A stretch of 63,814 nucleotides of DNA, filler included. It is 5 parts of 5 records of this genome, joined end to end, with 100 filler letters (N's around TTAATTAATTAA, not from the genome) between each part and the next. Parts side by side here need not be neighbours in the genome. Positions count along the whole stretch, not along the records: positions 14,051 to 20,416 come from SRR20825019_579; 4 more parts are not named here. One strand, 5' to 3'. A model generated the notes under the pieces. The model was not told the origin of the DNA. It did no database searches and worked only from the letters and a program-made list of their open reading frames with translations. How positions within the stretch are numbered: the first letter of the stretch is position 1; each line of letters opens with the position of its first letter. Position numbers and translations under genes: made by a program. This document shows, piece by piece, positions 14,051-20,416 of the stretch.

Positions 14051-14090
14051 TGTAGCCCTATTTTTTTTAGCCCGTGTTATACGCTTTTCA

Positions 14091-14231
14091 TTAAAGAGCA
14101 TGAACATTTCTTTTTCTCCTTACCGATATTGATAATTCGGTAAACGCACGTTTAAAATAATCCCCTTTTTTCTTTTTGATCGCTTTGCTCTTTACCACCA
14201 CAGGAACGAGGATGGTAATGTGCAAAAAGCG
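14091..14231. repeat. Left sub-terminal inverted-repeat blocks with hairpins
   Basis: 14091-14112 is the reverse complement of 20299-20320 (21/22); 14153-14176 is the reverse complement of 20263-20286 (24/24). Local hairpins at 14120-14143 (TTACCGA/TCGGTAA) and 14181-14231. Confidence 0.85.
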
Positions 14232-14237
14232 ACAGGT

Positions 14238-15812
14238 TCATTTTCTCATCCTCTTTCTCGTGAGTTTAACTCTGATTCCAGTTAGCTTTTCCAAATCTTC
14301 ATTGTTGATCCCCAAAGTTGGATTTAAGATATTAAGATCATTTGTAGAAAGTACCTCCTCAATATTTTTTTTGTTCTCGAATATTTCTGTAAATGTTTCA
14401 AATTGAGTTTGACTTATTTTAGAATAAGGAATTGGCAATCCTTTAAACTCACTAGGAACTAATTCTAAAACACCTCCACCATAATATCTTCCGTCAATTT
14501 CAGCGAGCAATAGAGTAAGGGTGTTATAAAAAGAATAGATAAAGCTGTTTATGTCGTAACCATTTCTCATACCAACCTTATATGCAGAATCAGTTACTAA
14601 AGCATTCGAATCATTCTTCAATAACTTTGGATATAAATGACTTCTTTTAAAGAAGAACGCTTCTGGTCTTTCAGCAATATTTGGAATGACGTACCAATTA
14701 TTTCTGATTTTACATTTGTACCTATTTGGAATACCTTCTTTTACACCAAGTTCAAGATATTCGTTTAGTTTTTTGGAAATTTTATCGGTATCGTTAAGCT
14801 GTAACAACTTTGTAGGTCGATTATTGTTTTTTAGGATTTCAATGTCTACCTCTGAAAAAACCACACTACCGTTAACGAACAAGCCTTTTTGAATTATTGG
14901 TTTAGTATATTTTGATAGATTAAATTGTTTTTCAGTTTCATTATCTATAATGAAAAACTTATTGGCGGCAGTAACAATTCCAGGCTTAGAGTCTGAGTAA
15001 TAATTAACATTTTTGAGCTTACTTTTTAAGTTATCTATAAAAGTTAATTCATCTGAAGTTAAGAAGTGATGTGTCCATTTTACTTTTGAAGAAACGAGTA
15101 AGTCATTATTTCTTAAAACAAAATTATTCTCTTCTAGTGTTTTCTTAGAATCTATATTAGCAAAAAACTCGCCTTTATTTTCAGATTTTCGGTACGCGAA
15201 TAGGACAATTGTATCTTGCCCTTTACATTCAAACATAAGATCATTGAAAGTGAAAATTTCTATTCTTTCAAATTGATTTTTTAAATATTCTCGAACTTCC
15301 TCAGCAAACTTTACTTGTAATAATTCAGAGGGAAGTACGAATGCTAGAACACCATTATCTATTAATAATGTATTCGCCTTAATAAGAAATGTTGTCCAAA
15401 TATTTTTAACCGAAGCATCCGTTAACCCCGCATCATTATGAATTTCTCGAATTAGTCCAATTTGTTTTTTGGTAAGTCTGTTTTTCTTGACATACGGTGG
15501 GTTTCCGACAATAGCCGAGTACTTTTTAGTGTCTGAAAATTCTAAAAAGTCGATCCCGATAAATGAAGAGTTCTTTTTATTCCATTTTTTAGAAGCTTTA
15601 TCTAACTCATCTTGATTAATATCCAGTGCGGTTAAGTTAATGGAAACGGAATCGTCTTTCTTCAGTTCTTCTATGAATGATCCATCACCTACACTTGGTT
15701 CTAAAATGGACATACGGGTTCTTCCTTCAAAGTGAGAGAGTACTCTCTTTGAAATGAATTCTGCCAAATATGATGGCGTGTAATAAGAACCAGTATTTTT
15801 TTTATTTGTCAT
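14238..15812 (-). CDS. N6-adenine DNA methyltransferase, gamma class (Eco57I/TaqI-like) with a C-terminal TRD
   Basis: Motif X TGSYYTP, motif I ILEPSVGDGSF, motif IV GNPPY and LAFVLP, followed by a C-terminal target-recognition region. No PD-(D/E)xK domain is apparent. Confidence 0.93.
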   Translation of the reverse strand: MTNKKNTGSYYTPSYLAEFISKRVLSHFEGRTRMSILEPSVGDGSFIEELKKDDSVSINLTALDINQDELDKASKKWNKKNSSFIGIDFLEFSDTKKYSAIVGNPPYVKKNRLTKKQIGLIREIHNDAGLTDASVKNIWTTFLIKANTLLIDNGVLAFVLPSELLQVKFAEEVREYLKNQFERIEIFTFNDLMFECKGQDTIVLFAYRKSENKGEFFANIDSKKTLEENNFVLRNNDLLVSSKVKWTHHFLTSDELTFIDNLKSKLKNVNYYSDSKPGIVTAANKFFIIDNETEKQFNLSKYTKPIIQKGLFVNGSVVFSEVDIEILKNNNRPTKLLQLNDTDKISKKLNEYLELGVKEGIPNRYKCKIRNNWYVIPNIAERPEAFFFKRSHLYPKLLKNDSNALVTDSAYKVGMRNGYDINSFIYSFYNTLTLLLAEIDGRYYGGGVLELVPSEFKGLPIPYSKISQTQFETFTEIFENKKNIEEVLSTNDLNILNPTLGINNEDLEKLTGIRVKLTRKRMRK

Positions 15813-16393
15813 TAATGTTTAAATAGCTTTTGGATATAGTCATCATAGGTATTGTACAACAAAATTAACCTGTCTTTCAAATTATTATCATCTGGCATTT
15901 TAACAACCAGTTCGCGAAGTTCTTTAATTAATTTATGAAGTTGTTCAATATTCCAAATTATTTCATGTTGCGGTTTGTATAATTTCATTGCGTTATACAT
16001 CCAGTCACCTAATTCCGTTTTTGGTTTTATTCTACCAGAGTTCAATCGCTCAAATTGGTTGACATACTCTTCCTCGCAAGGGTCAATAAATCCTTTGTTA
16101 CCATAGTTATGAGTTTTCTCATTACCTGTTGGCCATTTTGCGCGTTTAGCATTATTGCAAGATCTACAAGAATAAACGAGGTTCGAATAATCAGTGTCGG
16201 TAATACTAACTAAATGTTTTCTTGGTACAAAATGATCAATCTCAAACCAAATGAACCTCAAATTATCAATATCATTACAATAACCACATCTGTTCTTGAA
16301 ATCTAATTTTAAATTGTCTCTATGTTCACTATGAGAACTAACCGTAATCGTAATGTCTCTTCGTTTGGGAGTATGTTCTCTAAAAATGCTCAT
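15812..16393 (-). CDS. HNH endonuclease (Zn-binding)
   Basis: CGYC...FEIDHFVP...YSNLVYSCRSCNNAK; its stop overlaps the MTase start (TAATG). Confidence 0.92.
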   Translation of the reverse strand: MSIFREHTPKRRDITITVSSHSEHRDNLKLDFKNRCGYCNDIDNLRFIWFEIDHFVPRKHLVSITDTDYSNLVYSCRSCNNAKRAKWPTGNEKTHNYGNKGFIDPCEEEYVNQFERLNSGRIKPKTELGDWMYNAMKLYKPQHEIIWNIEQLHKLIKELRELVVKMPDDNNLKDRLILLYNTYDDYIQKLFKH

Positions 16394-16396
16394 TAT

Positions 16397-17047
16397 TTAT
16401 TTCTTGTTTCCTTTTTTTAGCTCATCTAAAATTTCTTTTGTTTGCAACACAAATTCATTCAACTGAGATATTGACTCTGGTTTAATTAAGTTTGCTCTGA
16501 TTTCTTTTCCTTCGGGCTCTAATTCGTCCATTAAAATGAAAAGCTTTGTCAATTGTTCTTCCTCTTCAGGCTCAAGATTGGATTCGTTCTTTTTCTTGAC
16601 TAATTCTTCAATTCGTTTTTCTGTAGTTGAAATTTTTCTGTAATAGCCTTCTATATCACTTCTAATTTTAGCTTTGAGAATTTCTAAGGCTTCTTCACTT
16701 TCTCCGTCCAAATCACCTTTACCATTAATTATATGAACATCATCCATATGATTTATGGCTTGGGGCTCATATGATGTAAGCATGGTTATTGGGAAATGCG
16801 GTCTTATGTTTTGAATCGCTGCAACGATTTTGTTGCCATTAAAATTAACATCTCCTTCTTCATCTAATAAGTAGTCTGTAACAATCCCATCGGGATTACT
16901 TTCAAATGCTTTTTGCAAAATACTTTCGACCGTAGATTCTGAACTTACCTTAATTCTCGTTATATCAAAATCATTTTTAAATGTCTGATAAAACGTATTC
17001 AGCCAAGCATCGCTTTCGTCAATATATACAATTCGGTATTTCATCAT
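16397..17047 (-). CDS. Response-regulator receiver domain with a C-terminal helical/coiled-coil extension
   Basis: IVYIDES acidic pocket, phosphoacceptor in GIVTDYLL, ITMLTS and a conserved Lys (INGK). No HTH output domain. The start overlaps the kinase stop. Confidence 0.85.
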   Translation of the reverse strand: MMKYRIVYIDESDAWLNTFYQTFKNDFDITRIKVSSESTVESILQKAFESNPDGIVTDYLLDEEGDVNFNGNKIVAAIQNIRPHFPITMLTSYEPQAINHMDDVHIINGKGDLDGESEEALEILKAKIRSDIEGYYRKISTTEKRIEELVKKKNESNLEPEEEEQLTKLFILMDELEPEGKEIRANLIKPESISQLNEFVLQTKEILDELKKGNKK

Positions 17048-19485
17048 CTCGTTTTGAAAGTTATTTTATGTTTTAAACCATTTTCAATTCCAATAATGGA
17101 GATTGTAGAGTTGTTGTATTCTTCAATGATTGATTTTACAATATATAGCCCTAATCCAGTTCCAATAACATTTCCTGTTTTATCTTTTTTTGAAGATTCG
17201 AGTAGTTTGAATATTTCTTCAGGATTATCATGGTATTGTTTGTCCAGTCCTTTACCGTTATCTGAAAACGTTATTTCTATATTTTCACCAACTGTTATCC
17301 AAGATATTACAATTAATTTTGGATGGGAATTTGATCCTTTAAGATAATTCATGGAGTTGGATAACAGATTATTAAAAATTGAATCCATGTCTACCTCAAA
17401 TGCTCTTATTGTGTTCGAACGATCATTAGTCCCGTTTAATTCAATTTGAATATTCCTTTGTTCTAGAGCCTTTTTCCAAGTTGACTTAAAACCTTCGAAG
17501 TATTCACCAAAGTTTAAGTTGCTTCGTTCTCTTTTATCTCGTTTTAATGTATTCAATGAGTATTCTAGCCAATGTTTAAGTTTTGTATCTTCTTCTTGAA
17601 TTAACTTAATCATATAAAAAGGATTGTCGTCCTTATCTAATTTTGTTAAGCTTTTTTCATCTAAATGATTTTTTAGTTCTCTAAGCAAGAATGATGTTCT
17701 TGGAATGAGCCTTGATCTTAAACTTTTTACTTCATGAGCAAAAGAAGAGATAATAAGTCCTACACTCGCTAAGTTTCTGAGAAGTCGAATTTCGTCTTCT
17801 TTTTCTTCAAGTTCACGGGTAAGAATTTGAACTCCTTCTGCTAAGGTTTCTTCCGTTCTTGACGAAGTGTTATCATTTCTAGAGTCGTTGCTCTCCGAAG
17901 TGTTACCATTTTCCGATTCACTTCCGCTATTGTTTTCTCTCTCCTCTTTTTCCTTTTTTATTCTGTCAGCCTCTTCTTGTGCCTTTCGCTTTGCTTCTGC
18001 CTCCTTATTTTTCTTTTTATGGAGCTCAGAAAGGTGAAACATAATTGTATTTCTATCCTTTTCAAAAAAGGAAATGGTCTCTTTTAGAATATTCACAAAC
18101 AAAGTGAATACATCATTTTCAATAATTCCTTCACGCCCTGACTTATCTTGAAAACTCAAATTATGAATTCTAGAGATATTTATCGTTCCAGCAATTTGGT
18201 TTGGTCTTATTCGATAACCACCTAATCTTTGACCTGCGCCACCAGGACTCTGAGATTGACGCTCTCCTAGTTTTAACCAATCTTGGCCGTTTTCTCCATA
18301 TGGTCGGATTCTAAAATCATCTCTAAAGATTTTCACACCTCCAAATCGTTTAAGCCAAGACTTTCTATTGGCACTTTTAAAAGAGTTATATGGATATTTT
18401 TTCAAGTCTCCATCATTGCTGTCGTCAGATATTGTGTTTTTTAGGAAATAAAAGCTAAATCCAAATTCCCCTACTTTAGAAATTAATTCTGCTTCTATAT
18501 CATCTGATAAAATTGCACTTAACGGCTTCGTGATCGTTATTGTTTTTGCTTTAAAATCCTCAAGGCGATATGGGTATTTTTTCATATCATCATAGTCGAA
18601 AACTTCTGAATATCTGTTTTCAAGAGCGTCAACATCAAGTTCATTTCTCGTTATGTTAACTTCGAGTGTGCCGCTTTCATTTCCGCTGTATTTCGCTTCT
18701 ATTTTATAATCATAATCATCGTAATATGCTGTTTTGACTTTCCCATATTTATCATAATCTTCTGTTGAAAAGAGGTAGATTTCAAAATCAGATTGTTCTT
18801 TGGGAGGCAGAAGCATTTCAAGGTTGCCGAAAAGATTTGCCAATTGTTCATCCGTCCAATTATCGTTTAATTCGGATATTTCAATAATAGTTCCTGTTTC
18901 AAATGAATCATCTTCAATTATCTGTTGTAATTGATCTTGACTTCCAAATTTGGTGATTAATTCATTTTTAAGATTCAGATTGGGTCTTGGTTCAAGATCA
19001 GCGTTAACCTGAGAAACAGTTGTTCCAGACTGGTCAAAGTCTTGCCAATTTACTTTCCAGTATAGCCCTTCATTTTCCTTGGATGATAATGTCTGTAATT
19101 CTGTGACAAGCCCAAGACGGTTTAACGCAAATCGGCCAATCCCTTTTGCTCCAGTTTTAACTCTACCATTTTCAGAAAGATGTTCGTATAGTTTGTCATC
19201 CGTCCCGATGGTCATCCATTGATTCGATATGATGTGGTTTGTCATGCCATGACCATTATCAATCATGTAAATCCTACTTTTCTTGGAGTTGACTAATTTA
19301 GTTTTTTCACCATCTTCATTTTCAGTTATATCATAAACCAAATCAAAAATCAGGATACACTTTTTGCTATCTGCATCATAAGTGTTTTTAACTAACTCAA
19401 CTATGGCACCTTCCTCGTTAGAAAAATTTTCTAAGCCAATTAATTTAGCAGTTCTGGCAGATACTTTAAATGGTATTTTTGACAT
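17044..19485 (-). CDS. Cytoplasmic histidine kinase fused to an N-terminal GHKL (MutL/MORC-like HATPase_c_3) ATPase
   Basis: N-terminal GHKL motifs ELVKNTYDA, DNGHGM, GAKGIGRFA and TGTII; S5-like GGVKIFRDDFRIRPYG; a coiled coil; H-box SSFAHEVKS, N-box IFNNLLSNS, G1 FSDNGKG and G2 GTGLGLYIVK. Start taken as MSKIPF (19485), 4 nt after the HTH stop. Confidence 0.92.
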   Translation of the reverse strand: MSKIPFKVSARTAKLIGLENFSNEEGAIVELVKNTYDADSKKCILIFDLVYDITENEDGEKTKLVNSKKSRIYMIDNGHGMTNHIISNQWMTIGTDDKLYEHLSENGRVKTGAKGIGRFALNRLGLVTELQTLSSKENEGLYWKVNWQDFDQSGTTVSQVNADLEPRPNLNLKNELITKFGSQDQLQQIIEDDSFETGTIIEISELNDNWTDEQLANLFGNLEMLLPPKEQSDFEIYLFSTEDYDKYGKVKTAYYDDYDYKIEAKYSGNESGTLEVNITRNELDVDALENRYSEVFDYDDMKKYPYRLEDFKAKTITITKPLSAILSDDIEAELISKVGEFGFSFYFLKNTISDDSNDGDLKKYPYNSFKSANRKSWLKRFGGVKIFRDDFRIRPYGENGQDWLKLGERQSQSPGGAGQRLGGYRIRPNQIAGTINISRIHNLSFQDKSGREGIIENDVFTLFVNILKETISFFEKDRNTIMFHLSELHKKKNKEAEAKRKAQEEADRIKKEKEERENNSGSESENGNTSESNDSRNDNTSSRTEETLAEGVQILTRELEEKEDEIRLLRNLASVGLIISSFAHEVKSLRSRLIPRTSFLLRELKNHLDEKSLTKLDKDDNPFYMIKLIQEEDTKLKHWLEYSLNTLKRDKRERSNLNFGEYFEGFKSTWKKALEQRNIQIELNGTNDRSNTIRAFEVDMDSIFNNLLSNSMNYLKGSNSHPKLIVISWITVGENIEITFSDNGKGLDKQYHDNPEEIFKLLESSKKDKTGNVIGTGLGLYIVKSIIEEYNNSTISIIGIENGLKHKITFKTR

Positions 19486-19489
19486 TTCA

Positions 19490-19699
19490 TTAACCTTTGG
19501 TGGATACAAAAAGTTCTCTAATATCTACTTCCAAGAATTGAGCGAGTTGATAGAACACCTCAACGGATGGTTGTACATCATTTGTACACCAACGAGAAAC
19601 AGTTGATTCCGTTTTGTTTAAGCGCTTAGCAATTTCTTTTGAAGATATACTTTTCTCAGCTAAAACGGCTTTTATCCTATTGTAATTTATTTTCTCCAT
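19490..19699 (-). CDS. XRE/Cro-family HTH regulator (69 aa), controller-protein-like position
   Basis: MEKINYNRIKAVLAEKSISSKEIAKRLNKTESTVSRWCTNDVQPSVEVFYQLAQFLEVDIRELF is the typical Bacteroidota small XRE HTH. Confidence 0.9.
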   Translation of the reverse strand: MEKINYNRIKAVLAEKSISSKEIAKRLNKTESTVSRWCTNDVQPSVEVFYQLAQFLEVDIRELFVSTKG

Positions 19700-19871
19700 T
19701 ATGCAATGTAATTGCTGTTTGGTGTAAATATACAGACTCTTAAATACTTCAAAATCGGCAGGAATTATAGTTTCATGCAAATTACCACGCATAAAAACGA
19801 AATAAAATTTGTTTGAATCGAAATTAATTGTAATTTGGTCTAAAGTTATTAACACCAAAAGCTAATTATCT
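19700..19871. promoter_or_regulatory. Divergent promoter region with Bacteroidota-type -33/-7 like elements
   Basis: Plus strand: TTTG (19808-19811)-N19-TAATTTGG (19831), one mismatch to TAnnTTTG. Minus strand: TTTG-N17-TATATTTA. Palindrome GCAAT-N3-ATTGC (19703-19715) next to the HTH start is a candidate operator. Confidence 0.4.
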
Positions 19872-20180
19872 ATGTCCAACAAAGAATTAATCATCAAATT
19901 GATCCAACAAGACTTAAAACACTGCCAATTAGTCGTTGGATTAGACCAACTCGGTTTAGAAGCATCAGACAAACATTGCCTTGAATTGTTAGACATTGTA
20001 GCCGACCTAATGCAAGTTCCCGCAGGGAACTTGGAATTCGATTGGGGTAGAGTGTACATCACTTATATGTCAGAATGCACGGGCGTAGAAGTTGAGTCGA
20101 CATCCGAATCTCTTCGACCATACGCAGAATATTGTTACAACGATTTATGCGAGATTTTAAGTTCAGCGAACGGACGTTAG
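19872..20180 (+). CDS. Small acidic hypothetical protein divergent from the XRE gene
   Basis: 102-aa helical ORF (MSNKELIIKLIQQDLKHCQLVVGL...) with an AT-rich upstream region; no recognised domain. Confidence 0.75.
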   Translation: MSNKELIIKLIQQDLKHCQLVVGLDQLGLEASDKHCLELLDIVADLMQVPAGNLEFDWGRVYITYMSECTGVEVESTSESLRPYAEYCYNDLCEILSSANGR

Positions 20181-20193
20181 TTCTACCGCGATC

Positions 20194-20374
20194 TGCGTGG
20201 GAAAAATAAGTGCATTACAAACTGACCGTAGGGAATTTGTAAATGCTCTTATGTGCGTGGGCAAAAGAAAAAAGGGGATTATTTTACCTTCAATCAATAA
20301 GAAATGTTTATGCTCTTTAACCTTGTTTGGGTGCTATCTACTCTGGGCTTCTCTCGGACATGGCGCACCCAAAC
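20194..20374. repeat. Right sub-terminal structured region: hairpins plus inverted-repeat blocks
   Basis: Hairpin 20206-20252 (ATAAG-GCATT-ACAAA / TTTGT-AATGC-CTTAT) flanked by TGCGTGGG direct repeats (20194, 20254); IR blocks 20263-20286 and 20299-20320; perfect 10-bp stem GTTTGGGTGC/GCACCCAAAC (20325-20374). Confidence 0.85.
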
Positions 20375-20416
20375 TGTTGTTGCGTATAACATCTGGCTAA
20401 AGATACCCCTTTATAT

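Follow-up and report, generated by a model that had tools for sequence, protein, structure and literature searches.

A rearranged, Ambrosia-like candidate defence operon in probable Flavobacteriaceae DNA, with a predicted receiver-nuclease complex

The subject of this report is a five-gene operon at positions 14238 to 19699 of a 63,814-nucleotide stretch of DNA, called the window, in which five contigs are joined end to end. Its closest described counterpart is the anti-phage system Ambrosia, which was found in one preprint only by a literature search whose scope excluded subscription journals and bioRxiv supplements. Ambrosia consists of an XRE regulator (AbrR), an N6 methylase (AbrA), a kinase/HATPase (AbrB), a receiver (AbrC) and an HNH nuclease (AbrD) (bioRxiv 10.1101/2025.09.30.679545). 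According to the sections of the preprint used here, it protects P. aeruginosa from two phage groups, and all five genes and the phospho-accepting aspartate D60 are required. The same sections report no host toxicity during defence, and phages grown on the methylase remain sensitive. The authors' hidden Markov model thresholds are 100 bits for AbrA, 500 for AbrB, 150 for AbrC and 200 for AbrD.

Several other systems share parts of this design. The architecture of the kinase, a soluble protein with a HATPase_c_3 domain, an H-box and a HATPase_c domain, encoded beside a receiver gene in a restriction-modification (R-M) neighbourhood, was earlier predicted for paraMORC-like HEF_HK/Response_reg_2 elements (PF19191 and PF19192; PMC8011034). 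As far as the cited parts of that paper go, however, the receiver-like query protein of that family is 600 residues long, and its methylases are mostly of the C5 kind. The window proteins match neither PF19191 nor PF19192, and PF19191 stays below its cut-off in 3/3 genomes with close relatives.

Detocs (DtcA-DtcB-DtcC) is the precedent for protein-level activation of an effector: its kinase passes phosphate to a receiver, and His and Asp mutants lose defence (bioRxiv 10.1101/2023.01.24.525353). Unlike here, the Detocs effector is fused to a receiver, a stand-alone receiver serves as a buffer, defence is abortive through ATP depletion, and the passages describing it include no methylase; the present operon has one receiver and a separate HNH effector. 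The window nuclease is related to PtuB of the Septu and Retron-Eco7 PtuAB systems, and the relevant passages of the paper on these report that defence requires the C-terminal domain of PtuB, which probably has a role in forming the complex (PMC12673091). In contrast to Septu, the operon has no ABC-ATPase PtuA and no retron, and its HNH protein falls under the NCBIfam PtuB cut-off (27.7 against 150 bits). Finally, in paraMORC1 R-M operons, methylases and HNH nucleases are neighbours of a GHKL ATPase that has a C-terminal extension (PMC2292703). These operons are predicted only and, in the text of that paper available here, a receiver is never mentioned (0 occurrences).

In the window, the five open reading frames (ORFs) are all on the minus strand and have the coordinates given by an earlier, sequence-only reading, and the tight coupling it described was verified at the junctions. 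The first gene (19490-19699) encodes an XRE/HTH_3 regulator of 69 residues (Pfam HTH_3 E 7e-12) with a putative AbrR-like role. Its stop lies 4 nt from the start of the AbrB-like kinase (17044-19485), a soluble protein of 813 residues. The kinase has, in order, an N-terminal MORC/MutL-type GHKL ATPase (Pfam HATPase_c_3, residues 25-156), a middle region, an acidic linker, an H-box (H584) and a histidine-kinase catalytic domain (HATPase_c, 699-797). Its GHKL motifs (E30/N34/D76-G78-G80) and H-box (H584-E585) are intact, and its catalytic residues are invariant or nearly so across 15 relatives.

The kinase stop overlaps the start of the AbrC-like receiver (16397-17047, with the start at 17047 or 17044), which is 215-216 residues long. 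Its Response_reg match is weak (Pfam E 0.003) and its putative phospho-site is D57. Among 125 family members, D9, E10, D57, T90 and K109 are kept in 82-98%, and D9, D57, T90 and K109 each in at least 96%. Three nucleotides further lies the AbrD-like HNH nuclease (15812-16393), a zinc-binding, PtuB-related protein of 193 residues with C-terminal helices (Pfam HNH E 2e-8; PADLOC PtuB E 1e-14) and the motifs C36/C39, D53-H54, N71 and C76/C79/N80. Compared with solved structures, it gave generic matches only, at E 0.014 or worse. A TAATG overlap connects it to the last gene (14238-15812), for an N6-adenine DNA methyltransferase of 524 residues that is Eco57I/TaqI-like (Pfam Eco57I and M_Eco57I_C) and carries NPPY. 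This methylase matches PADLOC MTase_II PDLC03267 at E 4e-141 and M.BseCI at E 3e-18. The GHKL, H-box, receiver, HNH and NPPY residues are all present, in agreement with the earlier statement that every catalytic motif is intact.

The same five parts that make up Ambrosia, as the preprint lists them, therefore occur here in one cluster. The sequence-only reading had recognised no named, characterised system with these genes. That statement no longer holds, since Ambrosia has the five parts, has been validated in P. aeruginosa and, by the preprint's account, loses defence when the phospho-Asp is mutated. The set is thus not undescribed, and because the system itself is already known the discovery value is modest. 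Abortive infection, which had also been suggested, is not favoured, given that no host toxicity is reported for Ambrosia during defence.

The operon is real, intact and conserved. It is a rearranged relative of Ambrosia as judged through the proxy clade described below, and very probably an anti-phage system of the Ambrosia kind. It departs from Ambrosia in gene order and in the winged helix. Here the methylase comes last, whereas the Ambrosia order inferred from the gene names is R-A-B-C-D, with the methylase second. The host here probably belongs to the Bacteroidota, while the preprint's account places Ambrosia in Gammaproteobacteria. In place of the winged helix stated for AbrC, the receiver model ends in a helical tail, which is also the predicted binding surface for the HNH protein. 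The methylase is probably of another family, as judged by the methylase of a proxy clade and not by AbrA itself.

This proxy, a Pseudomonas clade that fits the Ambrosia description, was reached by way of a plasmid from Klebsiella and of named Pseudomonas proteins. Its loci have the order methylase-kinase-receiver-HNH, and the phospho-Asp of the receiver is residue 60, as stated for AbrC, in 4/6 loci, or in 5/6 if the second Met of L061 is used. The window kinase is 26-29% identical to that of the clade over about 815 residues (best, 29% over 825 columns, E 1e-81). The receiver matches at profile E values of 1e-18 to 1e-26, and the nuclease matches the proxy (Gammaproteobacterial) family with a profile probability of 98.8. 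By contrast, the methylase has no BLAST match to the 423-residue methylase of the clade (best E 0.42). A search for the tested locus gave no E. coli DNA match, and among plasmids it found the proxy receiver only in Klebsiella. Sequences in the wide alignment were too diverse for it to be used in scanning for loci.

The linkage of the four core genes is visible from several sides. Among 25 close kinase loci, wherever there is downstream DNA, the kinase is followed by the receiver gene in 23/23, by the HNH gene in 22/22 and by a methylase gene in 21/21. A search of 400 sampled Flavobacteriaceae genomes with the nuclease gave 14 matches, all 14 in a kinase-receiver-HNH-methylase unit; two of these genomes were already covered, and one contig stops inside the kinase. 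A receiver search of 400 sampled Bacteroidota genomes, which left out 11 genomes matching only via the receiver domain of long proteins, gave three full-length matches, 3/3 in the same order. Seven plasmid records carry the HNH gene and all 7 also carry the kinase; the loci of 6 were inspected. The order is also found on Bacteroides, Bacillus, Salipiger and Ensifer plasmids, and a methylase-first order occurs in Deinococcus and in the Pseudomonas proxy clade. No relatives were found in viral contigs.

Since the same order recurs in unrelated genomes, the gene set is not due to chance. The idea of a phosphorelay-linked defence operon that moves as a unit is likewise supported by the linkage seen with the kinase, the HNH protein and the receiver. 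The Ambrosia design is thereby extended well beyond Gammaproteobacteria, to about 3.5% of the sampled Flavobacteriaceae genomes and to Bacillus, Alphaproteobacteria and Deinococcus plasmids. The XRE gene, which had been counted as part of the set, is a frequent but optional partner. It lies directly upstream of the kinase in 18/25 close loci and is adjacent in 11/14 of the Flavobacteriaceae loci; both counts come from a profile based on the XRE of the window, which could overlook other XRE genes. An upstream alignment gave a short common stretch before one XRE subgroup and no clear operator in the window.

The AlphaFold2 model of the receiver (predicted local distance difference test, pLDDT, 78) has a REC domain followed by a three-helix C-terminal domain (117-154, 159-175 and 195-212), without a winged helix. 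The fold match (Z 14.8, root-mean-square deviation 2.1, 117 aligned) involves mainly residues 1-140, so that it barely tests the fold of the tail. An Atlas search with the tail gave no usable match, and no Pfam DNA-binding domain or helix-turn-helix was found in the window protein or in the proxy clade.

Structure prediction places the receiver and the nuclease in a complex. The interaction score ipSAE was 0.73, 0.73 and 0.72 in three runs (median 0.73), compared with 0.02 for the best of 3 controls. At least 93% of contacts are shared between runs, and the pLDDT of the partner is at least 87. In the predicted interface, the receiver tail (145-210) contacts mainly residues 139-190 of the HNH protein, its C-terminal helices, including the invariant P141, Q142, E158 and Y186. 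HNH residues 46-48 and 76-82, at or near the helix that bears N80, also take part. Interface positions include I145, F169, L195 and V199 of the receiver and Y139-Q142, I145-I146 and L155 of the HNH protein. Since no solved close relative of the HNH protein was found, the chance of a pass by likeness is lowered, and is still present. The same literature search found no paper on a receiver-HNH complex.

A physical complex of the two proteins is likely, judging by these models. The proposal that the receiver gates the nuclease stands in part: direct action of the receiver on the nuclease is supported by the predicted complex alone. The new point is a signalling protein that is predicted to hold a nuclease directly, which, if true, would alter the view of how such systems switch on.

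The methylase behaves differently from the other three proteins. Compared with that of the window, the methylases of the 21 close loci comprise 7 at 64-78% identity, 2 at 39%, 11 of a 612-residue type at about 22%, and 1 cut short. Conversely, five loci with cores only 25-42% identical have methylases at 76-79%. In 34 Bacteroidota loci, the kinase core, the receiver and the HNH protein are correlated with one another in pairwise identity (rho 0.88-0.90), and each of them correlates with the methylase at 0.04-0.06; these loci form 561 non-independent pairs, so no p-value is given. Over all 43 loci, a set from which two duplicate genomes (L090, L091) and every locus with a gene cut short or split had been removed, the values are 0.84-0.89 within the core and 0.31-0.37 between core and methylase.

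Among the loci, the methylases belong to at least three PADLOC families, besides the 423-residue type. Kordia jejudonensis, Muriicola sp. E247 and Runella limosa are examples of strains with the different methylase types. The kinase tree was made by a quick IQ-TREE run, has long branches between its distant members and is used for its Bacteroidota part only; in it, the 612-residue methylase group is nested within Eco57I-type loci. Because kinase, receiver and nuclease diverge together and the methylase does not, these comparisons point to a three-protein core with fitted contacts, to which an exchangeable methylase module would be linked through DNA.

These results suggest an Ambrosia-like operon that is gated at the protein level. 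In this model, the kinase would sense a DNA state linked to infection through its N-terminal clamp, an ATPase of the MORC type. The kinase would then autophosphorylate H584, and the phosphate would pass to D57 of the receiver. Next, phosphorylation would rearrange the receiver-HNH complex, and the nuclease would be freed or activated against phage DNA. The methylase would be tied to the core via a DNA mark and not by a fitted protein contact, and its mark would more likely act as a trigger, or license the target, than protect self DNA in the classical way. Finally, the XRE protein would repress the operon. The whole chain, as written here, has about an even chance of being correct.

A broader version, which we regard as tentative and less likely than not, would apply to all Ambrosia-type systems. 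They would be phosphorylation-released nucleases in which the MORC clamp-kinase reads methylation independently of sequence, so that any adenine methylase could be plugged in, and the receiver is a phospho-switchable antitoxin or activator on a separate HNH protein. If true, it would supersede the transcriptional model of the preprint and assign a biochemical function to the paraMORC-kinase fusions. The specific predicted interface makes the question of mechanism directly testable. Natural pairs of loci, with near-identical cores and different methylases or the reverse, offer ready tests of phosphorelay gating and of the purpose of the methyl mark.

Several observations count against gating at the protein level or against the comparison with Ambrosia. 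The score mark of the complex prediction, passed by 51/78 solved pairs and 2/108 mismatched pairs, was also passed by 7/44 blindly picked neighbour pairs. In the receiver tail, interface residues are better conserved than the rest among close relatives (0.85 vs 0.70, p 0.014), equally conserved in the wide family (0.39 vs 0.39), and weakly more conserved on the HNH side (0.70 vs 0.61, p 0.10), all figures being without control for burial. The model separates neither inhibition from activation nor shows an effect of phosphorylation.

In the wider kinase family, association with the HNH protein is not obligatory. The sequence-only reading had attached weight to whether kinase and receiver occur apart from nuclease and methylase; the close loci with downstream DNA always have the four together, whereas distant kinase relatives (22-27% identity) have a metallo-beta-lactamase (MBL) hydrolase or a cytosine methylase as neighbour, or no HNH gene was found beside them. 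Homology to Ambrosia is judged through the proxy clade, whose identity with the tested locus is unproven. The proxy loci showed no adjacent XRE, and the clade may for this reason be a sister of the tested locus. Among the clusters listed in the search for that locus, no member is named P. aeruginosa. Lastly, the Ambrosia authors report a winged helix-turn-helix in AbrC and infection-induced expression (bioRxiv 10.1101/2025.09.30.679545).

The best surviving alternative keeps the gated nuclease but gives the methylase the role that the sequence-only reading gave it, namely marking of self DNA as in R-M systems. The core would then attack unmarked DNA, and the methylase families would be interchangeable through recognition of the same motif. 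Unrelated methylases can indeed recognise one motif, the window methylase is of a type II family, and a methylase is present in all of the 21 close loci with sufficient DNA. Among relatives at 64-79% identity, moreover, the C-terminal half of the methylase, presumed to recognise the target, is no more variable than the catalytic half. ParaMORC ATPases have been proposed as R-M components (PMC2292703, in the parts cited), and Ambrosia is described in the preprint as harmless to its host during defence (bioRxiv 10.1101/2025.09.30.679545).

Against self-marking, the identities of nuclease and methylase are decoupled: nucleases at 72-74% occur with methylases at 41-42%, and nucleases at 38-42% with methylases at 76-79%. 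In one locus (L001:4920-6647), the catalytic N of NPPY is replaced by K beside an intact core, in a single metagenome-assembled genome where a sequence error is possible; if the letter is real, the locus is a natural test case. Phages grown on AbrA alone stay sensitive to Ambrosia, and whether AbrA is active when alone is not evident from the text of the preprint. Marking of self is therefore doubtful and, while kept as a serious rival, unlikely.

A weaker rival is transcriptional control as proposed for Ambrosia, in which the phosphorylated receiver turns on expression of methylase and nuclease at infection. It would account for the winged helix-turn-helix of AbrC and for the reporter induction on infection described in the preprint, and an XRE gene heads most close loci. 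However, the induction could stem from the XRE protein alone, and the receiver tail is the predicted HNH-binding surface. The models of the window receiver and the proxy receiver both end in the same three-helix tail, with no beta-wing and no Pfam DNA-binding domain. The helical tail of the proxy receiver conflicts with the claim made for AbrC, unless the tested protein comes from another clade. Protein-level gating is favoured over the published model by the receiver-HNH model and by the shared divergence of the core without the methylase, and transcriptional control appears quite improbable.

Least probable of all is that the operon does not work against phages here and is instead a module for addiction or against plasmids, or a passenger in decay: it is patchy (14/400 and 3/400 sampled genomes), is found on plasmids and is broken in some copies, but patchy and mobile distributions are usual for defence systems, all motifs are intact in the window copy, and a system with the same five parts is reported to block phages (bioRxiv 10.1101/2025.09.30.679545, in the sections used). 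The broken copies affect the receiver in L022, the kinase in L025 and L030, and the methylase in L003. The cut methylase of L003 was not used as evidence, because the gene runs midway into a cation-ATPase fragment and may reflect misassembly.

Distant kinase relatives are found in other settings. On a Burkholderia plasmid (L031:3622-8791), a methylase, a distant kinase relative and a receiver are followed by an MBL-fold hydrolase that replaces the HNH protein, an effector swap. A distant kinase relative is also matched by 41 records of Campylobacter conjugative plasmids. The one inspected (L033:4989-9442) has the distant kinase, a 340-residue receiver and a convergent cytosine methylase.

The operon contig spans positions 14051-20416 of the window (6366 bp, between N-linkers). 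It is a bacterial piece of 33% GC with repeated sequence at both ends, while the other four contigs have 53-61% GC. Those of the four that were read have eukaryote-like ORFs, so the assembly mixes organisms. Since the window joins five contigs, the neighbours of the operon contig in it are not its genomic context. The contig is most likely Flavobacteriaceae DNA within a mixed assembly, because the closest relatives of the kinase, at 78% identity, are in Muriicola and Dokdonia.

The contig ends carry matching inverted blocks. Positions 14153-14176 match 20263-20286 in 24/24 letters, 14091-14115 match 20296-20320 at 92%, and a 10-mer at 14075-14084 matches 20382-20391. In one public sequencing run, which contains the whole contig as a single record and is possibly its source, a separate 2003-bp record has both of the same end words with 1936 different letters between them. 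Additional records of that run have the right end of the contig, and a record of another run joins the right end to the left. The operon may lie in an exchangeable cassette with palindromic repeat borders, or else belong to an element with terminal inverted repeats. As a family trait, attC-like cassette ends were rejected, with 4 sites in 44 loci compared with 6.8 in shuffles.

On the upstream side of the operon, the same contig holds a divergent ORF of 102 residues (19872-20180, plus strand). It has no Pfam, PADLOC or NCBIfam match and no counterpart in the 25 close loci, and is for this reason not counted with the operon. In four loci from four genera (L006, L007, L010 and L014), a like run of upstream ORFs of about 309, 205-225, 280, 195, 800, 95 and 95 residues lies on the opposite strand, which suggests a shared conjugative or integrative element.

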